DNA of 64,000 bases from Bacillota bacterium (GTDB lineage: Bacteria > Bacillota > Clostridia > Christensenellales > UMGS416): the NCBI GenBank assembly GCA_023422005.1, contig JAEZSC010000186.1, positions 30,219 through 94,218 on the forward strand. The letters run 5' to 3'. Numbering within the stretch: position 1 is the stretch's first letter; each line of letters starts with the position of its first letter. Positions 4,267 to 23,826 of this stretch are shown piece by piece. The notes below the pieces were generated by a model. The model worked only from the letters and a program-made list of their open reading frames with translations, ran no database searches and had not been told where the DNA came from. The translations under genes and the position numbers were made by a program.

Positions 4267-4890
4267 TTGGAGGATATAAGCATCGTGGATGGTATAAGCT
4301 CCTGTCTTTTCCTGGTGCCGGCGGTGATGGTTGTCTCGCTTCTTTGGTTCCTTTTCAGAAGAGCCCGGATTTCGAAGGCTGTTTTCCTGAACAATGTGCT
4401 GCTGATCCTTACTGTCGTTGTCATTATGGACAAAGTATTTTTTCCGCTCCCCTTGTCCGCCTCGGAAATTGAAAACATGAGGTTGGGGTCGGCCAATTTG
4501 CCTGGTTATAATCTCGTCCCCTTCCATACGATCGCCTCTCAGTTGGCCGGGAGCGTATCCGCAAGGTGGGCGTTCATACAGCTCGGCGGCAACATTGTGC
4601 TGTTTATTCCCTTAGGCTTTCTGATCACGTGGAAGCTGTTTCAGCGGAACAACAAGATAAACGCGCTCAAGACGATTGCCTTATGTGCGGTATCTTCAGC
4701 GTTCGTGGAAGCTGTTCAGCTTCTGTTGTCATTCGCTTATGGCTATGCATACAGGTTCGCCGACATCGATGATCTTTTTCTGAATACGTTTGGTGGGGCC
4801 TTGGGGGTTGCAGCCTTTGTTGTCTCGCTGCCGCTGGTCAAAGCGTGGTTGTATAAGTCGGGGAAACCCGTGGCGAGCAATCTCTCATAG
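4267..4890 (+). CDS. VanZ family membrane protein
   Basis: Multi-TM protein with NLVPFHTI and GNIVLFIPLGF motifs typical of VanZ-like proteins. Start uncertain (TTG 4267 or internal). AT-richer codon usage than its neighbours. Confidence 0.65.
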   Translation: MEDISIVDGISSCLFLVPAVMVVSLLWFLFRRARISKAVFLNNVLLILTVVVIMDKVFFPLPLSASEIENMRLGSANLPGYNLVPFHTIASQLAGSVSARWAFIQLGGNIVLFIPLGFLITWKLFQRNNKINALKTIALCAVSSAFVEAVQLLLSFAYGYAYRFADIDDLFLNTFGGALGVAAFVVSLPLVKAWLYKSGKPVASNLS

Positions 4891-9256: not shown

Positions 9257-9477
9257 AAGAAGAGTAAGAGGCCGACCGCCGATTGATTCGGCGGGAGGAA
9301 ATGGGAATAAGCAGAACGAAAAAGTAAAAACCCGCTCGCAGGCGCTTGGCGACATGTCCGCAAGGGAATTCGATTGCGGATTGCCGGTCGGCCCACAGGA
9401 CGATGCAGCGGCGGGCGACCAGAGATGCCGGAACAGGGAGGCTAAATCGCCAAGGCGCCACAGCGCCGAAGGCGAAA
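9257..9477. repeat. Mosaic GC-rich intergenic repeat element (shares modules with 51486-51654)
   Basis: Modules gaagaa..gccgaccg, gcgggaggaaat...aaaaacccgc.c.caggcg and aatcgccaaggcgccacagcgcc recur in the same order at 51486-51654. Confidence 0.6.
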
Positions 9478-9486
9478 AGGAGATGT

Positions 9487-9702
9487 ATGGACCATAGATT
9501 TGGCTTGGGCGACCGCGTGATGATGAAGAAGGAGCACCCCTGCGGCAGCGGTACTTGGCAGGTCATCCGCATCGGCGCCGACATCAAGATCAAATGCGAG
9601 GGCTGCGGCCGCATCGTGATGCTGGATCGCGCCACCTTTGAAAAGAGGCTGAAAAAAGTTGTTGACAGAAAATCGGAGGACGCACAGGATGCCCAAAGCT
9701 AA
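9487..9702 (+). CDS. DUF951 family small protein
   Basis: ATG 9487 follows AAGGAG. MDHRFGLGDRVMMKKEHPCGSGTWQVIRIGADIKIKCEGCGRIVML is the conserved DUF951 pattern with a CxxC pair. Confidence 0.65.
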   Translation: MDHRFGLGDRVMMKKEHPCGSGTWQVIRIGADIKIKCEGCGRIVMLDRATFEKRLKKVVDRKSEDAQDAQS

Positions 9703-10252
9703 GGAAACCAGAAAGAACTCCGCTGGCCGCGAGGTGCTGGAGTGGGTGATCTCGCTGGCGGTGGCCGTGGGCCTGGCGCTGGCGGTGCATACGTGGGTGG
9801 GTCAGCTGGTCACCGTGGAGGGGCCCTCCATGAATCCGGGGCTGTGGTCCAACGAGCGCGTGCTGGTGGGCCGGGTGGAGTATTATTTCCGCCAGCCCCG
9901 CCTGGGAGACATCGTGCTCACCCGCTTCCCCAACAGCAGCGAGCATTACATCAAGCGCGTGATCGGCGTGGGCGGCGACCGCATCGCTGTGACCGAAGGC
10001 GTGCTCTATCTCAACGGCCAGCAGGTGCAGGAACCCTATCTGATGGATTCCAGCATGGATATGGATTTTGAGGAGCTGACCGTGCCCGAGGGCAGCGTGT
10101 TCGTCATGGGCGACAACCGCAACAACAGCGAGGATTCGCGCATCGTTGGCCCGCTGCCGCTTTCCAACATCGAGGGCCGCGCATACACCATCGTGTGGCC
10201 CTTGAGCAAGTGGAAGCAGATCACCACCTATGACGGCCGCGTGGGCGCCTGA
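9689..10252 (+). CDS. lepB: Signal peptidase I
   Basis: Boxes GPSMNPG (catalytic Ser), YIKRVIGVGGD (catalytic Lys) and GDNRNNSEDSR. I take ATG 9689 rather than the track start at 9659. Confidence 0.9.
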   Translation: MPKAKETRKNSAGREVLEWVISLAVAVGLALAVHTWVGQLVTVEGPSMNPGLWSNERVLVGRVEYYFRQPRLGDIVLTRFPNSSEHYIKRVIGVGGDRIAVTEGVLYLNGQQVQEPYLMDSSMDMDFEELTVPEGSVFVMGDNRNNSEDSRIVGPLPLSNIEGRAYTIVWPLSKWKQITTYDGRVGA

Positions 10253-10295
10253 TATCCTTGTAACGCCATCTGCAACAACATAGAAGGACGTGGGT

Positions 10296-11183
10296 ATGAG
10301 CAAGAACGGGCACACCAACACCGAGGTCCGGGAGACCCCCGGCAGCTGGTTGCTGCGCTTCATCAAGGGCGCCATCATCATCGCCGGGTTCCTGCTGCCG
10401 GGCATCAGCGGCGGCGTGCTGGCCGTGGTGCTGGGCATCTACGAGCCGCTGATGCGCATATTGGGCAACCCGAAAACCCTGTTTCAACGCGATACCCTTC
10501 GGTTCTTTCTGCCGGTCGTGCTGGGCGCGGGCGCGGGCATGATCCTGTTCGCGTGGCTGCTCTCTGCTCTGCTGGATCGCTACGCCGCCTTCGTGATGTG
10601 GTTTTTCATCGGCGGTATCGTCGGCACATTCCCTTCGCTGTACCGCACTGCCGGGCAGCGGGGCCGCACACCGGGCCAGTGGGTGCTGGCGGGGGTATTC
10701 GTCATCGTCACCGCCTGGGGGCTGCACCTGCTGAACCCCGGCGTTGAGGAAGCAGCTGCCGCCATCGCGCCGGTAATGCCCGTGAACAGCCTGTGGACAT
10801 GGCTGTTTGCCGGGGCTTTGATGGGCCTGGGCACGGTGCTGCCGGGCCTGAGCCCCTCCAACTTCCTGCTTTTCCTGGGATTGCTGACGCCGCTGATGGC
10901 CGGCATCAAGTCGTTGGATCCATTGGTCGTGCTTGGCGCGGCGGCGGGCTTTGTCGTATGCGCTCTGGCGCTTGCCAGGCTTATGAACTGGCTGTTTGAC
11001 CGTTTCCACGGTTGGATGTACCATGCGATACTGGGCATCGTCGTGGGTTCCACGCTGGTCATATTGCCCGGGGATTTCCTGACCGCGGTGTTGAGCGCGG
11101 GCATCTTTGTGCTGGGCCTGGCGGCTTCGCTATGGATGGGCGAGAAAGAATCGCTAAAGGACCAGGCATTGCAGGATAAATAA
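10296..11183 (+). CDS. DUF368 family membrane protein (candidate polyprenyl-phosphate translocase, PopT-like)
   Basis: Polytopic protein with the DUF368 signature LLPGISGGVLAVVLGIY, repeated later as VLPGLSPSNFLLFLG. ATG 10296 follows GAAGGA. Confidence 0.75.
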   Translation: MSKNGHTNTEVRETPGSWLLRFIKGAIIIAGFLLPGISGGVLAVVLGIYEPLMRILGNPKTLFQRDTLRFFLPVVLGAGAGMILFAWLLSALLDRYAAFVMWFFIGGIVGTFPSLYRTAGQRGRTPGQWVLAGVFVIVTAWGLHLLNPGVEEAAAAIAPVMPVNSLWTWLFAGALMGLGTVLPGLSPSNFLLFLGLLTPLMAGIKSLDPLVVLGAAAGFVVCALALARLMNWLFDRFHGWMYHAILGIVVGSTLVILPGDFLTAVLSAGIFVLGLAASLWMGEKESLKDQALQDK

Positions 11184-11444
11184 CAGGGCACTCGTCCTTC
11201 TGCCCGGAATTTATATAGAATTTCTGCAAGATTTTTTTCCCAAAGTGCCAGGCGTTCGAGCAATTGCCTGGCATTTTGCGCCTCTTCTTGTGGATAATGC
11301 AACTTTTTGCCGTGAAAGACACAACAGGTGCCACCCATCGCCAAAGTTGGCGAATATTGTAATACGCAAAAAAGAACTTGCAAATCGCACTTATTGGTGC
11401 TACTTTATATGCAAAGATGAGAACGGCTCAAAGCCTTGATCATC

Positions 11445-11527
11445 GACAAAGGTAAACCTGCTGAAAGGCAGCGACACAAAGCTACAGGGCCTACGGGCGA
11501 AAGCCTATGGCAGCCAGTTGCCGAAAG
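11445..11527 (+). promoter_or_regulatory. c-di-GMP-I (GEMM-I) riboswitch aptamer, copy 1
   Basis: aaaGGUAAACC-ugcuGAAAggcag-CGACACAAAGCuacaGGGcc...GAAA...ggCAGCCAGUUGCCGAAAG matches the GEMM-I consensus GGCAAACC..GNRA..GACGCAAAGC..CAGCCGGUUGCC. The G-C/U-A pairs replace Vc2 G21-C46/C22-G45. Confidence 0.8.
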
Positions 11528-11584
11528 ATAGGGGCGTCCCATGTGCGGGCGAGCCGCTTGGCTTGTCGCATCAAGGAGCGTGGC

Positions 11585-11618
11585 ACCCGTTTTCCGGCAA
11601 CGGAAAACGGGTTTTTTG
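11585..11618 (+). terminator. Intrinsic terminator after riboswitch copy 1
   Basis: acccgttttccg gcaa cggaaaacgggt: a 12-bp stem followed by TTTTTT. Confidence 0.75.
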
Positions 11619-11833
11619 TCGTTTCCCTCAAATCTTTACCTTCGTCTTTCCCCAGGAACCGACCGGGGGTTCACCCCCCGGGAGGAAACCAACACCGGAG
11701 TGGTCCCCGCTTTGCAGAACCCGCCCGCAGGCGGTCCCTCGTATCCTGAAAAACGGTTACGAGACGTAAAGTGAGCCGCAGCCTGGCGACAGTTATCGCC
11801 AGGCAAAAACGAAAAGACCGTCACAAGACGTCC

Positions 11834-11866
11834 AAATCGCCGAGGCGCCGCAGCGCCGAGGCGAAA
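11834..11866. repeat. Double mini-hairpin repeat core (CGCC-ga-GGCG x2)
   Basis: aaatcgccgaggcgccgcagcgccgaggcgaaag. Related copies at 9445-9477, 35071-35100, 46951-46986 (reverse complement) and 47484-47512. Confidence 0.6.
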
Positions 11867-11873
11867 GGGCACC

Positions 11874-11956
11874 GATAATAGTAAACCTGCCGAAAGGCAG
11901 CGACACAAAGCTACAGGGCCTACGGGCGAAAGCCTATGGCAGCCAGTTGCCGAAAG
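11874..11956 (+). promoter_or_regulatory. c-di-GMP-I (GEMM-I)-type riboswitch aptamer, copy 2 (A at the position-20 equivalent)
   Basis: 11881-11956 is 75/76 identical to 11452-11527. The single change, U to C, makes the P2 stem CUGCC-GAAA-GGCAG perfect. The 5' flank differs (aauaGUAAACC). Confidence 0.8.
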
Positions 11957-12018
11957 CCGCGCATCGTTCCACTCCCATGGGTGGGGTCTATTCCCCATTC
12001 GTTGTGAAAGGAACCTTC

Positions 12019-12055
12019 AGCCGCAGCCGGCAACGACCGGGCTGCGGCTTTTTTG
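12019..12055 (+). terminator. Intrinsic terminator after riboswitch copy 2, 22 nt upstream of the Tad operon start
   Basis: agccgcagccgg caacga ccgggctgcggct: a 12-bp stem with one bulge, followed by TTTTTT. Confidence 0.75.
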
Positions 12056-12076
12056 ATCGGAAAACAGGAGGGCTTC

Positions 12077-12745
12077 ATGGACCAGTGGATGATGACGATG
12101 ATGCTGTTGTTGGGCGCGGCTTCCGGCTGGGCACTGCTGCCCTACACGTCGTGGATCGTCACCTTGCGGTCAGGCGGCTCTCTGGCCATCCGCCGAGAGG
12201 CCCCAAGCGCGCTGCTCGCGGCCGCGCCTCTGGTCGGCGGCATCGGCTGGGCGCTGTGCTGGGCGCTGGCCCCCACGCCGCTGGAAGCCGTGGAGCTGGC
12301 GCTGCTGCTGACCGCGACGCTGGCGCTCACCGCCATCGACCTGCGCATCCGCGTGATCCCCAATGAGCTGGTGATGGCGCTGCTGCTCTTGAGCACAGCC
12401 TTCGCATTGATGGAGCATGGCATCGCAGCGCTGCCGCTGCGCTTGCTGGGCATGGCCGCGGCGCTGGTGCTCTTCCTGGGCACGGCCCTGCTGGGTGTCA
12501 GCAAAATTGGCGGCGGCGACATCAAGCTGGCCATGGCCATCGGCTTCGCCGCGGGCTGGCCCAACATACTGGTAGCCGTGGCGGCCATGGGCTTGGCGGC
12601 GCTGGCTTCCCGCCTGTGGGACAGCCAGCCCTGGAGCCTGCGCCTGAAGACCCAACTGCCCTTTGCGGGCTTCTTGATGATCGGCCTGCTGGCCGCGCTG
12701 GTTTTGGATAAGGCGCGCCTGCTGGCCCCCCTGCTGGGCTCGTGA
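12077..12745 (+). CDS. Prepilin peptidase, A24 family (TadV/CpaA-like)
   Basis: ATG 12077 follows GGAGGG. Polytopic, with the aspartyl-protease motif GGGDIKLAMAIG and an upstream IDLRIRVIPNE region. Confidence 0.85.
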   Translation: MDQWMMTMMLLLGAASGWALLPYTSWIVTLRSGGSLAIRREAPSALLAAAPLVGGIGWALCWALAPTPLEAVELALLLTATLALTAIDLRIRVIPNELVMALLLLSTAFALMEHGIAALPLRLLGMAAALVLFLGTALLGVSKIGGGDIKLAMAIGFAAGWPNILVAVAAMGLAALASRLWDSQPWSLRLKTQLPFAGFLMIGLLAALVLDKARLLAPLLGS

Positions 12746-12851
12746 GGTGGAGAGGGGGAAGGGGCGATGAGCCCATAAAGCGCGGTCGGAATAAACCCAT
12801 ACATATCATGGCACAAACACGAACCGAAAAGAAAACAGAAGGAGTGCAGTC

Positions 12852-13025
12852 ATGAAAAACGTCGTCAAGCTGTTCAAGAGCGAAGAAGGACAAGGCATGG
12901 TGGAGTACGGCCTGATCATCGCGCTGGTGGCCGTGGTGGCCATCGTGGGTCTGGCGCTGCTGGGCCCCAAGATCAAGGAAATGTTCACGAACATCGCCGG
13001 CAAACTGAACGCCAACCCGACCTGA
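12852..13025 (+). CDS. flp: Flp/Fap family type IVb pilin, copy 1 (57 aa)
   Basis: Below the ORF-track size cutoff. My translation: MKNVVKLFKSEEGQGMVEYGLIIALVAVVAIVGLALLGPKIKEMFTNIAGKLNANPT. Flp processing motif G/MVEYGLI; GAAGGAG RBS. Confidence 0.85.
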   Translation: MKNVVKLFKSEEGQGMVEYGLIIALVAVVAIVGLALLGPKIKEMFTNIAGKLNANPT

Positions 13026-13057
13026 CGCGGAAACCGCAGAAAAAGAAGGAGATTGTC

Positions 13058-13231
13058 ATGAAAAACATCGTTAAGCTGTTCAAGAGCGAAGAAGGCCAGG
13101 GCATGGTGGAATACGGCCTGATCATCGCGCTGGTGGCCGTGGTGGCCATCGTGGGTCTGGCGCTGCTGGGCCCGAAGATCAAGGATATGTTCACGAACAT
13201 CGCCGGCAAACTGAACGCCAACCCGACGTAA
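13058..13231 (+). CDS. flp: Flp/Fap family type IVb pilin, copy 2 (57 aa)
   Basis: MKNIVKLFKSEEGQGMVEYGLIIALVAVVAIVGLALLGPKIKDMFTNIAGKLNANPT. AAGGAGA RBS. Two substitutions relative to copy 1. Confidence 0.85.
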   Translation: MKNIVKLFKSEEGQGMVEYGLIIALVAVVAIVGLALLGPKIKDMFTNIAGKLNANPT

Positions 13232-13266
13232 GCCCAGAACACCGAATAAGCGAAGGAGAGACTGTT

Positions 13267-13440
13267 ATGAAAAACATCGTCAAGCTGTTCAAGAGCGAAG
13301 AAGGACAAGGCATGGTGGAATATGGCCTGATCATCGCGCTGGTGGCCGTGGTGGCCATCGTGGGTCTGGCGCTGTTGGGCCCGAAGATCAAGGAAATGTT
13401 CACCAACATCGCCGGCAAGCTGGACGCCAACCCGACCTGA
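13267..13440 (+). CDS. flp: Flp/Fap family type IVb pilin, copy 3 (57 aa)
   Basis: MKNIVKLFKSEEGQGMVEYGLIIALVAVVAIVGLALLGPKIKEMFTNIAGKLDANPT. AAGGAGAG RBS. Confidence 0.85.
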   Translation: MKNIVKLFKSEEGQGMVEYGLIIALVAVVAIVGLALLGPKIKEMFTNIAGKLDANPT

Positions 13441-13462
13441 CGCAGATTAGCGGGTTTGCTGC

Positions 13463-13509
13463 CTCCCGCGCGGTTCGTTCAGGGCGGGCCGCGCGGGAGC
13501 AGAGTTTTT
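13463..13509 (+). terminator. Hairpin plus U-tract after the pilin genes (probable attenuating terminator)
   Basis: ctcccgcgcgg...ccgcgcgggag: an 11-bp GC stem followed by cagagTTTTT. Confidence 0.55.
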
Positions 13510-13529
13510 AGAATCTGAAAGGTAGAACA

Positions 13530-13946
13530 ATGTCTCGATTTGCACGCGATCTGAAAAACAGAAAAGGGCAGTCGATGGTGGAGCTGGCTCTCGTGATGCC
13601 CATCCTGCTGCTGGTCGTGTGCGGAATTGTGGATTTTGGCTGGGTGTTCAGCAACAACATGATCACCAGCTACTCCAGCCGCGAGGGCGCCCGCATGGGC
13701 ACCATCGTGGCCGACCAGGCCGACGCCGCTGACCAGGTCACCGACCGCGTCATGGCCGTGACACCGGCCTTCGCCCACAGCGGCATCCAGGTTGCGACGG
13801 CATTCACCAATGCCGCGCAGCCCGAGGAGGGAGACGTCAAGGTAACGGTGCGCTATACGTTCCCGCTGCTGACGCCCTTTGCCCAGATCATCTTCGGCAG
13901 GACGACCTATACGACGGTGAGCACCTGCCAGATGAAGGCGGAATAA
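13530..13946 (+). CDS. tadE: TadE-like pseudopilin / pilus assembly protein
   Basis: N-terminus KGQSMVELALVMPILLLVVCGIVDFGWVF is the TadE-like hydrophobic segment. Confidence 0.8.
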   Translation: MSRFARDLKNRKGQSMVELALVMPILLLVVCGIVDFGWVFSNNMITSYSSREGARMGTIVADQADAADQVTDRVMAVTPAFAHSGIQVATAFTNAAQPEEGDVKVTVRYTFPLLTPFAQIIFGRTTYTTVSTCQMKAE

Positions 13947-13962
13947 GAAAGGAAGCATACCC

Positions 13963-15039
13963 ATGCCGGCCAAACTTCTGATCGACCTGTGGAAAAACAC
14001 CCGCGGCGCCACGATGATACTGGCGACCGTCGTCATGGTCGCGGCGCTGGGCTTCACCGCCGTTGTCGTGGATATCGGCACCGTGGCGCTGGAGAAGCAG
14101 CGCATGCAGAACGCCATCGACGCGGCTTCGCTGGCCGCCGCCCGCGACCTGCCCGATACGGCCAAGGCCGCGGCCACCGCCGTGGAATACATCGAAAAGA
14201 ACGGTTATCAGGCGAGCGATGTCAACATCGCCTTTACCGACGACGATACCGTGATCCGCATCAACGGCAGCAAGCGGGTGGATTACACCTTCGGCCGCGT
14301 GCTGGGGCTCTCGGGCACCACGATTACGCCCGAGGGCGCCGCGGGTTTGGGCCGCGCGGGAGGGGCCTTCGGTTATGCGATCTTCTCCGGCAGCACTTCG
14401 TCCACGCTGTCCCTCAACGGCAGCGAATATTACGTAAAGGGCAGCACCCATACCAACTACAAGTTTGTCGGAAACGGCTCTCGCCTGACCATCACCGGCG
14501 CCTGCGAAGCGGTCAAGACGGTCACCATCAACGGCTCCAAGATCGACGTGCCCACCCGCATCCCCAATGCGCCGTTTATCGAGATGCCGGACTTTTCCGA
14601 GGAGATCCGCCGGCAGGCTGAGGCTGCCGGCCAGCTCTTCAACGGCAACAAGACCTACAACGGCAGCTCCATCGATGTGTCCGCGCCAATCTATGTCAAC
14701 GGCAACGTCACCATCAACGGCAGCAAATTCCACGGTGTGGGTTGCATCTTCGCCACGGGCTCCATCACCTTCAACGGCAGCTCCCAGAAAGTGAGCACCG
14801 GCGACGCCATCTGCATCTACAGCAAGACCGGCAGTATCACCGTCAACGGCTCCGCCGCCACGATCGATGGCATCCTCTACGCACCCAACGGCAGCGTCAA
14901 CATGAACGGCTCCAGCCAGCAGGTCAATGGCCGTGTCATCGGCAATACCGTGAACCTCAACGGCAGCGCCATCCGCGTCATCAGCAGCGAAGAGGACCTC
15001 AGGAGCATTCCGATCACCTACGTGCGGCTGGTCCGCTAA
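13963..15039 (+). CDS. TadG-like (Tad N-terminal domain) protein with an NGS-repeat C-terminal region
   Basis: RGATMILATVVMVAALGFTAVVVDIGTVALEKQRMQNAIDAASLAAA matches the Tad/TadG N-terminal domain. It is followed by 11 N-G-S tripeptides in a periodic pattern. Confidence 0.7.
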   Translation: MPAKLLIDLWKNTRGATMILATVVMVAALGFTAVVVDIGTVALEKQRMQNAIDAASLAAARDLPDTAKAAATAVEYIEKNGYQASDVNIAFTDDDTVIRINGSKRVDYTFGRVLGLSGTTITPEGAAGLGRAGGAFGYAIFSGSTSSTLSLNGSEYYVKGSTHTNYKFVGNGSRLTITGACEAVKTVTINGSKIDVPTRIPNAPFIEMPDFSEEIRRQAEAAGQLFNGNKTYNGSSIDVSAPIYVNGNVTINGSKFHGVGCIFATGSITFNGSSQKVSTGDAICIYSKTGSITVNGSAATIDGILYAPNGSVNMNGSSQQVNGRVIGNTVNLNGSAIRVISSEEDLRSIPITYVRLVR

Positions 15040-15066
15040 CATCCGGCGTAACAGGGGAGTTTTTCT

Positions 15067-15858
15067 GTGAAGAAGATTAGGATCATCGCCGCAATAGCCG
15101 CGGTCGTACTTGCCATCAGCGTCTATGTGTATCTGGACAGCCTGAAAAAGCCGCCGGTGGAAGCGCCGCGTTCGCCGGTGGTTGTGGCCAAGGTGGCCAT
15201 TCACGCCGGCGACGTCATCGGTGAGGACATGGTTTCGATCATCAGCCTGCCCAGCGAGTCGGTGCTGACCGGCGCTGCCCGCACGACCGATGAGGTCGTC
15301 GGGCGCATCAGCGACCGCAACACCGAGGCCGGCGAACAGCTGCTGGTGTCGCGCTTTCTGCAGCCCGGCGAATCCAACGGCGGTTTGAGCTACGTCGTGC
15401 AGAGCGGCATGCGGGCTGTAACCATCCCCACCGACGCCATCAACGGCGTGGCTGGCATGATCAAGCCCCGCAACCGTGTGGATTTGCTGGTTTCGCTGGA
15501 CCTGGCTCTGGGTGTGGACAAGACCGCCGCACCGCGCCCCACGATGGACCCCGAAGCCGTCGTGGGCGGCAGCGCCGACGGTGAGCCGGCGCTGCCACCC
15601 ACCAAGCGCTACTCCATCGTCGCCATGCAGAACATACTGGTGCTGGCCGTTGGCCAGAGCATGGATACGGGCAGCGATGCCGGGCGGGACGCTGTGGCGG
15701 GGGCGGGCACCATCACGCTGCAGGTGACGCCGGAACAGGCGCAGAAGATCAACCTGGCGGCCTCCATGGCCGGCACGATCCGTCTGACGCTGCGTTCGCA
15801 GCTGGACACCGAGACCCAGGATTTGCCGCCCATGGACGAGACTGTATTTTACAAGTAA
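15067..15858 (+). CDS. cpaB: Flp pilus assembly protein CpaB/RcpC
   Basis: GTG start, N-terminal TM anchor, SAF-like segment VVVAKVAIHAGDVIGEDMV, and position within the tad operon. Confidence 0.8.
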   Translation: MKKIRIIAAIAAVVLAISVYVYLDSLKKPPVEAPRSPVVVAKVAIHAGDVIGEDMVSIISLPSESVLTGAARTTDEVVGRISDRNTEAGEQLLVSRFLQPGESNGGLSYVVQSGMRAVTIPTDAINGVAGMIKPRNRVDLLVSLDLALGVDKTAAPRPTMDPEAVVGGSADGEPALPPTKRYSIVAMQNILVLAVGQSMDTGSDAGRDAVAGAGTITLQVTPEQAQKINLAASMAGTIRLTLRSQLDTETQDLPPMDETVFYK

Positions 15859-15871
15859 GGCAGGAATCGCT

Positions 15872-17047
15872 TTGAAAACCAGCGTTTTACTGATAAGTCG
15901 CAGTGAGGAAAAGCGCCAGGCGCTGCACACCCTCATGGAGGCCGAAGAGTTCGGCGTCGTGGCCGGCGTGAAGGGCGGTCTGTCGGCACTGGAGAAGGTG
16001 GACAGCATGTCTCCGGACATCGTGGTGCTGGTACTTTCCGGCGCCGATCCGGACACCTTCACCGTTTGTGAGCGCATCTATCTGGGTAAGCCCAAGTGTA
16101 CGATCGTGCTGGTGGCCGATACGGTGGATGTGGACTCGGTACACCGGGCGCTGGAGGCGGGAGCCACCAGCCTGATCGGCTGGCCGGGCAGCCCGGCGGA
16201 GTTCACCGCGGCGTTGCGGGCCGCCCACAGCCGCAAGAACACCCATCTGGGCGCGCTGGGCGACCCGGACAAGCTGGGCAAGAGCAGCAAGGTCATCACG
16301 GTGTTCGGTACCAAGGGCGGCATCGGCAAGACCACCATCGCCGTGAACCTGGCGGTAAAGCTCTCGCAGATGGGCCAAAAGGTCGCCCTTCTGGATCTGG
16401 ACCTGCAGTTCGGTGACGTCAGCGTATTCCTGGACCTGGAAGCCAAGGACACGCTTTCGGAGCTGGTGCGCGACAAGCCGGATATGGACATCGACTCCAT
16501 CCGCAGCTACATGCTGCTGCACGCCTCCGGCGTGCATGTGCTGTGCGCTCCCAACAGCCCCGAACTGGCAGACACGATCACCAGCCGCCACATCGAAAAG
16601 CTGTTGGGGGCTGTTCGCGGCTATTATGACTACATCATCATCGACACTCCTGCCATGCTGGGCGAATGCACGCTGACGGCCATAGAGGGCAGCTCCCAGG
16701 TGCTGTTCGTGCTGGGGCTGGACATCTCCATCCTGCGCAACGCCCGCATCTGTCTGGGGCTGCTGGAAAGCCTGCAGCAGCGCGACAAGGTCATGCTGGT
16801 CGTCAACCGCGAGGTGGAGGGCTCTGTCACGATCCACGACGTGCAGCGCATCATGGACCGGCCCATTGTGGCGCGCTTCCCCACCGATTGGCGGCTGGCC
16901 GTGGGCGCCCTCAACCGCGGTATGCCCTTGGTGCAGAGCGCCCCCAATTCCGCGCTCAGCCGCGCCATCGCCGCCTTTGCCCAAAGCATGGTGCAGGGCG
17001 AGGCGCCGGCCCGCAAAAAGGGCCGCGCCGCCGGGCGCAAGGGGTAG
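15872..17047 (+). CDS. cpaE: TadZ/CpaE: degenerate receiver domain plus ParA/MinD-like ATPase
   Basis: Deviant Walker A GTKGGIGKTT. The N-terminal REC-like fold lacks the canonical acidic pocket and phospho-Asp (PDIVVLVLSG). Confidence 0.85.
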   Translation: MKTSVLLISRSEEKRQALHTLMEAEEFGVVAGVKGGLSALEKVDSMSPDIVVLVLSGADPDTFTVCERIYLGKPKCTIVLVADTVDVDSVHRALEAGATSLIGWPGSPAEFTAALRAAHSRKNTHLGALGDPDKLGKSSKVITVFGTKGGIGKTTIAVNLAVKLSQMGQKVALLDLDLQFGDVSVFLDLEAKDTLSELVRDKPDMDIDSIRSYMLLHASGVHVLCAPNSPELADTITSRHIEKLLGAVRGYYDYIIIDTPAMLGECTLTAIEGSSQVLFVLGLDISILRNARICLGLLESLQQRDKVMLVVNREVEGSVTIHDVQRIMDRPIVARFPTDWRLAVGALNRGMPLVQSAPNSALSRAIAAFAQSMVQGEAPARKKGRAAGRKG

Positions 17048-17050
17048 CCC

Positions 17051-18409
<1,359 letters not shown>

Positions 18410-18410
18410 C

Positions 18411-19331
18411 GTGGTTGGCCTCATTTCTTTGATCGCCGCGGTGCTGGCCTTCTGCCTGATCGTGTTGGTTTTGGCCTTTATGCAGAGGGACAAGCTGCGC
18501 ATTCGCGCCCGTTTGGAAGCCATGGCAGCGCCGGCCCAGGCTGCCCGGGAGCGCAAGGCCCGGCCCGGCCGGGAGCGCTCCTCCCGCGTGGGCGGCCAGC
18601 TGGCCGGCCAGCTGGAGAGCGCCGGCATTCTGCTGCGGGCCGACGAATTCGTATTGATCTGGGTGTGCGTCACGGTGGCGCCGGCGGGCCTGCTGCTGTT
18701 TTTCAAGGCAAATCCGGTAACGGCCTTCGCCGTGGCGGCTGCCGGCGCTGTGCTGCCGCCCATCCTGGTGTCCATGGCCCGGCGCAAGCGGCTGATGCTC
18801 TTTGACAAACAACTGGGCGACGCGCTGGGCATCATCGGCAACTCGCTGCGGGCGGGGTTCACATTCCAGCAGGCCATGGACAGCATCGCCTCGGAGATGC
18901 CCGACCCCATCGGCAAGGAATTCGCCAAGGCCCTGCGGGAGATGCGCCTGGGCGTGCCCGTGGAGACGGCGCTGGACAACATGGTGCGCCGCATGAACAA
19001 CCCGGACCTGGAGATGCTGGTGACCGCCGTGCTCATTCAGCGCCAGGTGGGCGGCAACCTGGCCGAGGTCATCGACAGCATCGCCGTCACGATCAAGGAC
19101 CGGCTCAAGATCAAGGGCGATGTACGGGTGCTCACGGCTTCCGGGCGCATGAGCGGTACCGTCATCGGCCTGCTGCCGGTGTTTATTTCGGCCATTCTGA
19201 TGGTCATGAACCCGGCCTATGTCATGACGTTCTTCAACACGACCATCGGCATCGTCATGCTGTGCGTCGCTGCCGTCATGGAGACCATCGGTTTTCTGAT
19301 CGTCACCAAGATCGTCAACATCAAGTATTGA
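18411..19331 (+). CDS. tadB: TadB (type II secretion system F family) platform protein
   Basis: GTG 18411 follows GGAGGGA, directly after the cpaF stop. T2SSF-domain membrane protein. The track ORF 18288 start overlaps cpaF and is rejected. Confidence 0.8.
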
Positions 19332-19338
19332 GGTCCTC

Positions 19339-20295
19339 ATGGAACTAGCTGTCCTGTGCACGTTCATACTGACGTTCTGCGTGGTCGTGATGGCGCTGGC
19401 CCCGCTGGGCCGGCGCGCCGACCACATGGTGCGCCGCGTGGGCCGTGTGGCCGACATCGGCAAGGCTGCCGCCATGGAGGCGGAGCTTGCCCGGCCCATC
19501 GGCGAACGCTTCTTCCGCCCGGCGCTGGACGCGCTGGTGCGAGCCTTAAGCCGCTCTCTGACCAAGGGCAAGAACGCCAAGCTGGAGGCCGCCCTCAAGA
19601 GCGCCGGCATCTCCTCGCGGCCCAGCGAATACCGCGCGCTGCAGCTGGTTGTCATGATGGGGCTGTCCATCGTCATGGGCGCTCTGGCCTTTGCCAACAT
19701 CTATTCGATCACCAACGCGCTGGGCATTGCCTATGACCCGCTGGTGGCAGTGGGCCTGACGCTGGCTCTGGCGCTGCTGGGCGGGTTGGTGGGCATGATC
19801 CTGATGACTTATCGCCTGCAGGTGCTCACGCGCACGCGAAAGACCAGCATTCAGCGCCAGCTGCCCGAGGTGCTGGACCTGCTGAGCGTCAGCGTGGAGG
19901 CCGGCCTGGGCTTTGACGCGGCACTGCTGCGGGTGACCGAACGAGCCCGCGGGCCGCTCATCGAGGAGCTCAAGACCGCCTACCGCGAGATCACGCTGGG
20001 CAGACCCCGATCCGAAGCGCTGCGGGCGCTGGAAGCCCGCACCGGTCTGGACGAGGTCAAGACCTTTGTAAGCGCCATCATACAGGCTGAGCAGTTGGGC
20101 ATCTCGCTGCGCAACGTGCTGCGCAGCCAGGCCACGCAGATGCGCCTGCTCAAGCGCCAGCGGGTGGAGGAACGGGCCATGAAGGCGCCGGTCAAGATCA
20201 TGATTCCCATGGCGCTGTTCATCTTTCCGGTGCTCTTCATACTGCTGATGGGGCCGGCGGTCGTCAACATCATCACTACATTTACGGGGGGCTGA
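19339..20295 (+). CDS. tadC: TadC (type II secretion system F family) platform protein
   Basis: Second T2SSF-type membrane protein (LPEVLDLLSVSVEAGLGFDAAL) immediately after tadB. Confidence 0.8.
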   Translation: MELAVLCTFILTFCVVVMALAPLGRRADHMVRRVGRVADIGKAAAMEAELARPIGERFFRPALDALVRALSRSLTKGKNAKLEAALKSAGISSRPSEYRALQLVVMMGLSIVMGALAFANIYSITNALGIAYDPLVAVGLTLALALLGGLVGMILMTYRLQVLTRTRKTSIQRQLPEVLDLLSVSVEAGLGFDAALLRVTERARGPLIEELKTAYREITLGRPRSEALRALEARTGLDEVKTFVSAIIQAEQLGISLRNVLRSQATQMRLLKRQRVEERAMKAPVKIMIPMALFIFPVLFILLMGPAVVNIITTFTGG

Positions 20296-20297
20296 CC

Positions 20298-20735
20298 ATG
20301 GCTATGATCTCGGTGAACGGGGTGCCGGTGGCGGCGTCAGTGGAGGTGGCCAACACCTTCCGGGCGCGATTTAAAGGGCTCATGCTGCGCAAACACCTGC
20401 CCGTGGGCGGCGGGATGCTTTTGACACCGTGCAACAGCGTGCACATGGCCTTCATGCGCATGAGCCTGGATATCGTGTATCTTGGCGCCGACTACACCGT
20501 GTTGGCTGTGGAGCCAAACCTGAAGCCCTGGCGTGTAGGCCGCCTGGTGCGCGGCTGCCGCCATGTATTGGAGCTGCCGGCGGGCCAGGCGGCGCTGGAG
20601 GGCATCGCCCCCGGTGTGAGGCTGGCCGTGCGCATGCCCATGGCGGGCAGCGGCAGGCTCATCAAACCCCGCAGCGCGGCGCAAAGCATCCCCTGCCACG
20701 CCCCGGCGGACCCCCCACTGATGGAAAGAAGGTAG
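20298..20735 (+). CDS. DUF192 domain protein
   Basis: Pattern NTFRARFKGLMLRKHLPVGGGMLLTPCNSVHMAFMRMSLDIVYL...VLELPAG, typical of DUF192 (COG1430). Starts 2 nt after the tadC stop. Confidence 0.7.
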   Translation: MAMISVNGVPVAASVEVANTFRARFKGLMLRKHLPVGGGMLLTPCNSVHMAFMRMSLDIVYLGADYTVLAVEPNLKPWRVGRLVRGCRHVLELPAGQAALEGIAPGVRLAVRMPMAGSGRLIKPRSAAQSIPCHAPADPPLMERR

Positions 20736-22518: not shown

Positions 22519-23826
22519 ATGCAGATACTCCAAATGATCAAATCCAGTCTGGACTACATCGAGCACAATCTCAAAACCGACATAACGGCTGAGGAACTGG
22601 CGAAGATGTCGAATTACTCGACATTCCATTTTTGCCGCCTGTTTTCATCGGTGATGGACTCGTCTGTTTCGGGCTATATACTCAAGCGTCGTCTTGATCA
22701 CGCCCTCAGCGAAATTGCCGATGGGAAAAAGGCCATTGATGTGGTGTCGGAATACGGGTTTGAAACATATGCGGGGTTCTATAAGGCTTTCACCAAAATG
22801 TATGGTTGCTCTCCGAAAAAGTATCTTTCGATCTATAGGCATCACAGACCCAAAAAACCGGAGGTGGCAGACATGTATACGGAGAAAGAATTGCGCAAAA
22901 TCCTTGAAAATTGGGACATTGAAAGCGGTATACCGATTGGCGGCATCCCTGTGATGGGAGGGGCGAAAGTATCCGGCAGCGTATGGATGGTTGGCAGCGA
23001 CTACATCCTGAAAACCGGCAGCCGCGAAAAGCTCATGAAAAATCTGAAAGTTGCGAAAGCTCTCGCAAAGCAGGGCTTTGCCGCTGCCCTGCCTGTACCG
23101 TTGAAAACGGGAGCCGAATATCTGGATGGCGAGCAGCTTTTTGTCTTGGCCCATGGTATCAAAGGCAGCCCGCTCCCCAGGTCCGATATGTTCGGGAGCA
23201 ACAGGGTTGGCTTCGGCATCGAATACGGGAAAAGCATTGCCCGGCTTCATAAGGCGCTGAGAGAAGTGGGAAGTGAAGTCTTGCCGGATGAGGTCAATCT
23301 GTACCAAACCATATCGGAGTGGGCGCTTCCGAATGTACGCCGGCAGAACGTGCAATGGAGCATGGGCCTGGATGAGGGATTCTTTAAGGACTATACCGAC
23401 ACCTTTGGGGAACTGTTTGATAAACTGCCAAAGCAGCTCATTCACCGGGACCCCAACCCTGGCAACATCTTATTTTGTGATGATGAGGTGAGCGGATTCG
23501 TGGATTTCGATCTAAGCGAGGTCAACGTCCGTTTGTGGGATGCTTGCTACTGCGCAACCGGAATACTTTCCGAAGCCGGTGAAGAGGCATATGAGCGTTG
23601 GTTTGATATTCTTGGCGGGATTCTGCATGGGTATGATAGCGAGAGCAGGCTGACACAGGAAGAGAAGCAGGCTGTGTTTTATGTGATTTGCTCCATTGAG
23701 ATGATCTGCGTCGCTTATTTTGATAGCCAGGAAGAATACAGGCAGCTTGCCAAAACCAGTCGTGGAATGCTCCTGTATATAGCGAACAACAAAGAAAAGA
23801 TCCAGCAAATCATTGAGCCGCAGTGA
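22519..23826 (+). CDS. AraC-type HTH (N-terminal) fused to an aminoglycoside/choline-kinase-like phosphotransferase domain
   Basis: N-terminal 100 aa carry a double HTH_18 (ITAEELAKMSNYSTFHFCRLF...YGFETYAGFYKAFTKMYGCSP). The C-terminal part has the catalytic loop LIHRDPNPGNILF and metal-binding FVDFDLS. Confidence 0.75.
   Translation: MQILQMIKSSLDYIEHNLKTDITAEELAKMSNYSTFHFCRLFSSVMDSSVSGYILKRRLDHALSEIADGKKAIDVVSEYGFETYAGFYKAFTKMYGCSPKKYLSIYRHHRPKKPEVADMYTEKELRKILENWDIESGIPIGGIPVMGGAKVSGSVWMVGSDYILKTGSREKLMKNLKVAKALAKQGFAAALPVPLKTGAEYLDGEQLFVLAHGIKGSPLPRSDMFGSNRVGFGIEYGKSIARLHKALREVGSEVLPDEVNLYQTISEWALPNVRRQNVQWSMGLDEGFFKDYTDTFGELFDKLPKQLIHRDPNPGNILFCDDEVSGFVDFDLSEVNVRLWDACYCATGILSEAGEEAYERWFDILGGILHGYDSESRLTQEEKQAVFYVICSIEMICVAYFDSQEEYRQLAKTSRGMLLYIANNKEKIQQIIEPQ

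Follow-up and report, generated by a model that had tools for sequence, protein, structure and literature searches.

Two GEMM-I riboswitch units with different ligand-contact bases stand in series ahead of a Tad/Flp pilus operon in an uncultured Bacillota lineage

Here we describe a tandem riboswitch leader in a 64-kb stretch of DNA (64,000 nucleotides of contig JAEZSC010000186.1, hereafter the window) from an uncultured Bacillota bacterium. The leader comprises two complete aptamers of the GEMM-I fold, the class of riboswitch that senses cyclic diguanosine monophosphate (c-di-GMP), each followed by its own intrinsic terminator, and lies directly before a Tad/Flp pilus operon. The two aptamers are almost identical in sequence and differ at the base that contacts the ligand, which is G in the upstream unit (unit 1) and A in the gene-proximal unit (unit 2). 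We interpret the arrangement as two OFF riboswitches in series within one leader, both of the type of the Cd1 switch of Clostridioides difficile; unit 1 would be specific for c-di-GMP, and unit 2, an A-variant, would probably bind c-di-GMP more weakly and could accept cGAMP, the 3′,3′-linked cyclic dinucleotide of GMP and AMP. We put the probability of this interpretation at about 0.68. The parts of the two units are the following (positions are those of the window):

11441–11525, + strand: aptamer 1, c-di-GMP-I (GEMM-I); Rfam RF01051, 75.1 bits, E value 6e-13.
11518–11536, + strand: antiterminator strand of unit 1 (UUGCCGAAAGAUAGGGGCG; aptamer 3′ strand plus tail), predicted to pair with 11581–11600 when ligand is absent.
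11585–11617, + strand: terminator 1, ACCCGUUUUCCG-GCAA-CGGAAAACGGGU followed by U6; stem 11585–11612, U6 11612–11617, ΔG −21.2 kcal/mol.
11870–11954, + strand: aptamer 2, GEMM-I fold; RF01051, 73.4 bits, E value 2e-12.
11946–11960, + strand: antiterminator strand of unit 2 (GUUGCCG plus tail), predicted to pair with 12020–12034, including CGGCAAC at 12028–12034.
11966–12014, + strand: intervening hairpin of platform 2 (GUUCC...GGAAC), which juxtaposes the aptamer 3′ strand and the terminator 5′ strand.
12019–12054, + strand: terminator 2, AGCCGCAGCCGG-CAACGA-CCGGGCUGCGGCU followed by U6; stem 12019–12049, U6 12049–12054, ΔG −23.2 kcal/mol.
12066–12072 and 12077–12745, + strand: ribosome-binding site (RBS) AGGAGGG and prepilin peptidase gene (ATG at 12077; Pfam Peptidase_A24), the first gene of the operon.

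A cmscan search of the 64-kb window at the Rfam gathering thresholds returned exactly two matches, both to RF01051 (c-di-GMP-I) and both on the + strand. Both are far above the gathering score of that family (35 bits) and full length (model positions 1–87), with no truncation of either. In the alignments, the two aptamers each display a GAAA tetraloop, its receptor CCUAcG/UAUGG, the segments ACAAAGC and GCCGAA, and the ligand-pairing C equivalent to C92 of the Vc2 riboswitch (11520 in aptamer 1 and 11949 in aptamer 2). A GNRA tetraloop with its receptor, an A-rich linker and the ligand-pairing C are the hallmarks of the GEMM-I fold (PMC1950547, PMC6140456). Blastn and direct alignment agree on 75 identities over 76 positions between 11452–11527 and 11881–11956, and the flanks are unrelated, divergence beginning at once on both sides. 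Apart from the ligand-contact base, the sole difference between the aptamers is U at 11462 versus C at 11891, within P2. A preliminary description of this DNA, made by reading the letters, had proposed a series of two GEMM-I aptamers, 99% identical and each followed by an intrinsic terminator of its own, before a Tad/Flp operon, and had suggested the search with RF01051; cmscan, the terminator folds and the Pfam annotation now agree with it, and the identity that it gave stands. However, the repeat as it was delimited there starts one base late, which hid the difference considered next.

The ligand-contact position (G20 of Vc2, position 11 of the Rfam model) is occupied by G at 11451 in unit 1 and by A at 11880 in unit 2, one base 5′ of the 75/76 repeat. 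Unit 1 thus has the G20 of the strict c-di-GMP type and unit 2 does not, and the definition of GEMM-Ib (GEMM-I fold with A at the G20 equivalent) fits unit 2 only. Because of the A at 11880, unit 2 is placed in the GEMM-I fold family but outside the strict c-di-GMP-specific type. The effect of this base is known from other members of the family. Wild-type Vc2 binds c-di-GMP with a picomolar dissociation constant (Kd) and cGAMP with a Kd of 10 µM, and in its G20A mutant the two values are 53 nM and 120 nM; for Cbe 1-2, a natural A-variant of Clostridium beijerinckii, they are 30 nM and 463 nM (PMC6140456). The A-variants of Geobacter are about 1,200–1,600-fold selective for cGAMP (PMC6456294, PMC8835794). 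Among near-identical aptamers of Desulfobacca, G versus A at this base shifts specificity from c-di-GMP towards cyclic AMP–GMP (c-AMP-GMP) (Sherlock et al., PMC9481103).

The expression platforms that follow the aptamers were compared across 21 units, a set that includes unrelated stems and three GEMM-I units located before other genes. In 21 of 21 terminators, the top of the 5′ strand carries (C)GGCAA(C), or a compensated variant of it, complementary to the (A)GUUGCCG(A) at the 3′ end of the aptamer, a strand that runs from the end of P3 through the C that pairs with the ligand into the start of P1. Both units of the window possess a separate terminator together with an antiterminator strand complementary to it; in terminator 1, the apex CGGCAA (11595–11600) is complementary to UUGCCG of the aptamer. 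The two terminators had been described as unrelated, but they are not entirely so: CCGGCAAC is common to both apices and complementary to the aptamer 3′ strand. When the aptamer pairs of the Rfam model were enforced, the terminator folded in all 14 units treated in this way. When transcripts were cut before the 3′ strand of the terminator, the antiterminator was always part of the unconstrained minimum free energy (MFE) structure, in which it encloses the intervening hairpin. This helix comprises 8–14 pairs by a stricter count and 11–20 by another (21 units). Shuffled terminator 5′ strands yielded a mean of 1–4 pairs in 20 of the 21 units and 8.1 in the remaining one (L013_b), and in 14 of the 21, no more than 6 shuffles in 100 reached the observed number of pairs. 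For unit 1, 14–17 antiterminator pairs compare with a shuffle mean of 2.6, the observed count being reached once in 100.

The full-length MFE structure retains the antiterminator in unit 2 of the window and of L014 (win_u2 and L014_u2), in L013_a and in L015; for unit 2 of the window, the energy is −71.9 kcal/mol with the antiterminator versus −67.4 kcal/mol with the aptamer enforced. Two compensatory changes lend support to the antiterminator helix: in L076_u1 the aptamer reads GCUGCCG and the terminator CGGCAGU, and in L013_b the aptamer reads CUACCGAA and the terminator UUCGGGUA. The GUUCC/GGAAC pairs that close the intervening hairpin of platform 2 also occur in L007, L008 and L014. A layout of the Cd1 type, in which a separate and compatible terminator is combined with an antiterminator made of the aptamer 3′ strand and the terminator 5′ strand, is predicted in all 21 units. 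Because Cd1 is an OFF switch with this layout, both units are predicted to terminate transcription when ligand is bound.

In the mechanism that we propose, each unit would combine its aptamer with an intrinsic terminator and, between the two, a hairpin of about 60 nt. When ligand is absent, the aptamer 3′ strand (A)GUUGCCG(A) and its tail would pair with the terminator at its 5′ strand and apex (...CGGCAAC), so that the terminator is blocked and polymerase reads on. When ligand is present, the 3′ strand would be held in P3, in the C92–ligand pair and in P1; the terminator would then fold and transcription would stop. Read-through of the leader would be the product of two such checkpoints, giving tighter and steeper repression at high cyclic dinucleotide, and the operon would be transcribed only when cyclic dinucleotide is low. 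Unit 1, with G at the G20 position, would be c-di-GMP-specific. On this model, c-di-GMP would be the main input of both units and cGAMP a possible second input at unit 2.

Conservation of the arrangement was examined in 12 related metagenomic loci, found by a genome-collection scan with an aptamer 30-mer, through homologues of the peptidase and on the contigs of those homologues; aptamers in these loci were confirmed by Rfam. Contigs identical or nearly identical to the window occur in several metagenomes, and the organism is uncultured. A tandem is present in eight loci (the window, L014, L010, L011, L012, L075, L076 and L077). L079 has one unit only, L078 has one together with a decayed second, and L008 has at least the gene-proximal one. 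All of these leaders precede the same peptidase–Flp–TadE operon. On the peptidase tree, the loci fall into clade W (the window, L014, L007 and L008) and clade X (the rest), between which the peptidases are about 38–54% identical (42–48% among tandem-bearing loci). In L010–L012 and L075, the starts of the two aptamers are about 200 nt apart and only about 35–40 nt separate terminator 1 from aptamer 2; for three of the tandems, this spacing leaves no space in which a promoter could fit. A scan of four loci (the window, L014, L010 and L011) showed no sigma-70-like promoter between the two units. The conservation of the tandem in two divergent clades, the short gap and the lack of such a promoter together favour a true tandem, one of three readings that had been put forward for the pair; the comparison of related genomes that had been suggested with it finds both units kept in eight loci. 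We infer a single leader transcript that covers both units and starts near 11413–11415.

Several of the related contigs display features of their own. In L078 (1380–1500), only the last 17 nt of aptamer 2 remain (GGCAGCCAGUUGCCGAA, which is the antiterminator strand), ahead of a full platform with its terminator; if the OFF model holds, the remnant would keep terminator 2 permanently antiterminated. The contigs L007 and L009 start, at their position 1, inside aptamer 2, as fits an assembly break at a repeat. De Bruijn assemblers break contigs at repeated sequence, and these starts indirectly suggest that the aptamer is duplicated in those two genomes as well. A scan of Joint Genome Institute (JGI) metagenomes with the 30-mer gave no match, and a scan of the same collection with the 18-mer CCGAYAATAGTAAAMCTG gave 59 loci, all of them chance matches except L064. 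This JGI contig carries at about 4620–4703 (− strand) an unrelated A-type (A20) GEMM-I aptamer with a GUAA loop and no tetraloop receptor. Metagenome-assembled genomes (MAGs) of Oscillospiraceae carry G-type GEMM-I units that share the same 3′ 30-mer (L013, 7549–7465, and L015, 4316–4232, both on the − strand), and these precede homologous small secreted proteins of about 126–133 amino acids.

At position 11, A occupies the gene-proximal or sole unit of every readable locus (11 of 11). Unit 1 carries G there in five of the eight tandems (the window, L014 and L010–L012) and A in the other three (L075–L077), in which it also bears a GAUAAUA flank like that of unit 2. A G-then-A order held in the first five tandems, and we had considered it as an invariant; this was dropped with the A/A tandems of L075–L077 and the single A units of L078 and L079. 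A is thus the characteristic state of this Tad leader, and the heterotypic pair is common without being obligatory. On the peptidase tree, the G/A pairs occupy clade W and one tip group of clade X, a placement for which G must have been gained twice or converted to A three times or more. On this tree, the G/A pair may have arisen independently in the two clades.

Over the aptamer cores (positions 12–85), the two units of one genome are 1–3 nt apart, and orthologous units of the two clades are 5–8 nt apart. The 5′ flanks (positions 1–11) cluster by unit in the five G/A loci, unit 1 with unit 1 and unit 2 with unit 2, and the unit-2 terminators are homologous across clades, terminator 2 of the window matching those of clade X (CCGCAGCCGGCAAC...CUGCGG). 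The homogeneity of the cores, the unit-wise clustering of the flanks and the homology of the unit-2 terminators indicate an old duplication whose cores have been homogenised by gene conversion. The global identity of the expression platforms was not used in this comparison, as its baseline of about 0.6 for unrelated sequences makes it uninformative.

Several points weigh against our interpretation. The OFF direction derives from thermodynamic predictions, and in these the terminator is still part of the full-length MFE structure of most units; for win_u1, the energies of the free fold and of the fold with the aptamer enforced almost coincide at the decision point (ΔΔG −0.3 kcal/mol). c-di-GMP commonly promotes pili and attachment, and its repression of an adhesion-type pilus would run counter to the usual expectation. 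With regard to the ligands, A20 alone would not separate a cGAMP-selective aptamer from a bispecific one or from a weaker c-di-GMP binder. With regard to the single transcript, the structured spacer of 252 nt that parts the two units of the window might conceal a start site outside the promoter model of the scan. The promoter-like element upstream of aptamer 1 fits the sigma-70 consensus poorly and, because it lies below the threshold of the scanning tool, we treat it as a candidate.

An alternative that we consider unlikely is a two-signal NOR gate, in which unit 1 senses c-di-GMP, unit 2 is a true 3′,3′-cGAMP sensor (GEMM-Ib) and the pilus operon is on only when both messengers are low. In such a gate, gene conversion would keep the aptamers alike and selection would keep the specificity base apart. 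G at 11451 and A at 11880 are almost the only difference between the aptamers, A is a known determinant of cGAMP binding (PMC9481103, PMC6140456), and G followed by A is found in five of eight tandems from two clades whose peptidases are only 42–46% identical. Position 11 stays different although the cores have been homogenised (1–3 differences between paralogues, 5–8 between orthologues), and GEMM-I units before other genes in related MAGs (L013 and L015) have G, whereas the gene-proximal or only unit of the Tad leaders has A in 11 of 11. However, natural A-variants outside Geobacter have proved bispecific, and Cbe 1-2 favours c-di-GMP (30 versus 463 nM); the three A/A tandems (L075–L077) imply that a G/A pair is not required; and position 11 lies just beyond the homogenised tract, so its persistence may only mark the end of conversion tracts. 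In addition, a motif search of the open reading frames (ORFs) of at least 120 amino acids in the 64-kb window found no GGDEF motif, which a Hypr GGDEF enzyme would carry (CD-NTases were not searched for). If the gate were real, cGAMP signalling and GEMM-Ib-type switches would govern Tad pili in uncultured Bacillota, far from Geobacter, and the leader would add a new ligand pair to the published table of tandem riboswitch logic gates.

A reversal of direction, with cyclic dinucleotide preventing termination and inducing the pilus, seems less probable still. Such ON behaviour is represented by the Bc3-5 tandem of Bacillus thuringiensis, the GEMM-Ib switches of Geobacter and the class-II switch of C. 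difficile pilA1; it would suit both the frequent association of c-di-GMP with pili and adhesion and the unconstrained full-length folds, most of which contain the terminator. Many GEMM-I riboswitches are indeed ON switches, but in these the terminator 5′ strand overlaps the aptamer 3′ strand (PMC1950547, PMC4759541). In the present units, a separate hairpin some 60 nt further downstream serves as terminator, and its 5′ strand is complementary to the aptamer 3′ strand, so that ligand binding would free the terminator; no segment was found in the units that could act as a ligand-released antiterminator. We regard as improbable to a greater degree the proposal of two separate functions (the preliminary description had named a stand-alone small RNA plus a separate operon leader), with unit 1 as a riboswitch-terminated small RNA of about 200 nt that has a role of its own and the operon transcribed from a second start in the spacer under the control of unit 2 alone. 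Terminated riboswitch transcripts that act in trans occur in other systems, and in the window and L014 a structured spacer of 252 nt with conserved hairpins does part the units. However, no promoter-like site was found in the spacer, nothing else supports the proposal, and L010–L012 and L075 have no spacer, terminator 1 being about 35–40 nt from aptamer 2; because it is missing from these loci, the spacer is an addition within one clade, outside the basic design. Last, the near-identical cores (75/76) and unrelated flanks had also suggested the relic of a recent duplication, with one unit non-functional. This scarcely merits credence: both units score as full aptamers with a terminator and a matched antiterminator each, and it is for this completeness that we reject the idea. 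The pair is positionally conserved in two divergent clades, the flanks group by unit, the unit-2 terminators are homologous, and near-identity is better explained by gene conversion; true decay looks different, as in L078, which retains the last 17 nt of aptamer 2. Two OFF switches in series, with c-di-GMP as their main input, therefore remain our preferred interpretation of the leader.

The tandem is framed by further elements:

11246–11278, + strand: terminator-like hairpin UGCCAGGC...GCCUGGCA followed by UUUU, by reading of the sequence.
11378–11406, + strand: candidate leader promoter; −35 TTGCAA (11378–11383), 17-nt spacer and TG-extended −10 TGcTACTTT (hexamer 11401–11406).
11618–11869, + strand: structured spacer of 252 nt with hairpins at 11663–11681, 11781–11804 and 11838–11863.
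12852–20735, + strand: remainder of the Tad/Flp operon (Pfam).

The terminator-like hairpin at 11246–11278 appears to close a VCA0040-like gene (10290–11183) and to set it apart from the riboswitch leader; it is retained in L002 and L005 although the intergenic stretch around it has diverged. From the candidate promoter, the leader transcript would start at about 11413–11415, some 26 nt ahead of aptamer 1. This promoter-like island is conserved as TTGCAA-17-TGaTATGTT in L002, L005 and L014, the surroundings being only about 75–80% identical; clade X has another conserved block in its place. The close strains L002 and L005 were rejected as a sign that selection acts on the leader. Both match the window at 100% over 11480–12900, where even the peptidase gene has no synonymous difference, while their flanks are 5–25% divergent; they are therefore a recombination mosaic and not a case of purifying selection. 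Over 9400–15600 of the window, tracts of 100% identity to these strains (10800–11100 and 11480–12900) alternate with 5–25% divergence, a pattern that points to frequent homologous recombination around the pilus locus.

The spacer occurs in the window, L014 and L008, all of clade W, and is absent from L010–L012 and L075. It had been described as lacking a gene, and this is confirmed: it contains no conserved ORF, alignment with the relatives revealing frame-breaking indels, and it matches no Rfam family. A permissive Rfam scan of 11180–12080 returned the two RF01051 matches and otherwise weak chance matches overlapping terminator 2, which ruled out a third, degenerate aptamer or another known RNA in the spacer. 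Its hairpins at 11781–11804 and 11838–11863 carry compensatory changes in L014 and L008, on a comparison of three sequences only. The last of them (11838–11863), which has tandem G–A mismatches, stops 6 nt short of the Rfam start of aptamer 2 and 17 nt short of its first paired base. This hairpin is folded by a double copy of CGCC-GGCG that is unique in the window. The dispersed CGCC-GGCG repeat to which the copy had been assigned is modestly enriched but weak as a repeat, the 10-mer with one mismatch occurring 31 times versus 18 expected. At the other end of the leader, unit 2 had been said to end 22 nt before the RBS; the U-tract of terminator 2 in fact stops 11 nt short of the RBS, and the 22 nt is its distance from the ATG.

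After the peptidase gene, the operon encodes three Flp proteins (12852–13440), TadE, a TadG-like protein, RcpC/CpaB and a REC–ParA protein (TadZ/CpaE-like), followed by a T2SSE ATPase (CpaF/TadA), two T2SSF proteins (TadB and TadC) and a DUF192 protein whose gene ends at 20735. The operon is complete and, being without a secretin, of the Gram-positive type. The three Flp genes are copies about 91–94% identical at the DNA level, and their number varies among near-identical strains, from three in L003 (3776–4364) to two in L002 (3776–4324) and one in L001 (3776–4220). In L001, a deletion of about 900 nt (window 13167–14074) takes two Flp copies and TadE and truncates the 5′ end of the TadG-like gene. 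Just past the operon, an ORF at 22519–23826 (+ strand) combines an AraC-type helix–turn–helix domain with an APH-type (kinase-like) phosphotransferase domain, an unusual fusion.

A tandem of c-di-GMP-I riboswitches before a pilus operon is ordinary in itself, and this one adds a clean and well-conserved example from an uncultured Bacillota lineage. Its particular value lies in the pair, which comes close to a natural single-nucleotide experiment: two aptamers on what we take to be one mRNA differ at the specificity base and at one base of P2. The pair thus provides a simple system in which the integration of two messengers can be set against two affinities for one messenger. The family as a whole displays concerted evolution with recurrent changes at the specificity site. 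Its loci range from G/A and A/A pairs to single units and one unit in decay, and exemplify the origin, homogenisation and decay of tandem riboswitches. Should the OFF prediction hold, high cyclic dinucleotide would repress this Tad pilus, against the common rule.

The preliminary description knew of no tandem class-I units on a Tad locus, but the elements of the arrangement are on record. c-di-GMP-I occurs in tandem more often than any other riboswitch class, 347 doublets and 12 triplets being catalogued (PMC9481103); tandem GEMM was noted in 2007 (PMC1950547), and the same paper lists GEMM upstream of cpaA, which encodes the Tad prepilin peptidase (Weinberg et al., Table 2; PMC1950547). Because tandem GEMM-I and GEMM-cpaA are both published, the arrangement is of a known type. 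In the literature compared, which did not include the founding cGAMP riboswitch papers, we found no description of a direct pair of c-di-GMP-type and cGAMP-type aptamers in one leader (absent from Table 2 of PMC9481103), of an OFF-type platform on a Tad operon or of the concerted evolution of such a pair.

Among known systems, the Bc3-5 triple tandem of B. thuringiensis shares with the present leader a Firmicute host, cell-surface target genes and a series of complete units, here presumably in one 5′ untranslated region, with highly similar aptamers and their own terminators. It gives more digital control (PMC4759541), but it is an ON system in which the terminator overlaps the aptamer 3′ strand, whereas the terminators here are separate and OFF control is predicted. 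The G/A aptamer pair also differs from the published tandems in not being among the tandem logic gates of PMC9481103. The GEMM-Ib riboswitches of Geobacter resemble unit 2 in having A in place of G20 in a GEMM-I fold, and tandems and downstream pilus assembly genes occur among them as well (PMC6456294); by contrast, they are ON switches and are paired with a known Hypr-GGDEF cGAMP synthase, whereas here OFF control is predicted and no synthase is known. In Desulfobacca acetoxidans, near-identical G and A aptamers with shifted specificity are likewise found (PMC9481103), although they belong to separate clusters, each paired with an adenosylcobalamin (AdoCbl) riboswitch. The GEMM-cpaA association (PMC1950547) has in common with the window a GEMM-I element directly before a Tad/Cpa prepilin peptidase gene as cis-regulator; it is a gene association only, to which the present locus adds another lineage, the heterotypic pair and the predicted OFF-type platform. 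The closest parallel in switching is Cd1 of the C. difficile flagellar operon, an experimentally characterised transcriptional OFF switch in which the antiterminator arises some 50 nt past the aptamer (PMC9262584). Cd1 has G at position 20 and consists of one unit only, its target is flagella and not a Tad pilus, and its function was assayed there and is predicted here; as in both units of the window, however, its aptamer and terminator can coexist, and its antiterminator is made of the aptamer 3′ strand and the terminator 5′ strand.

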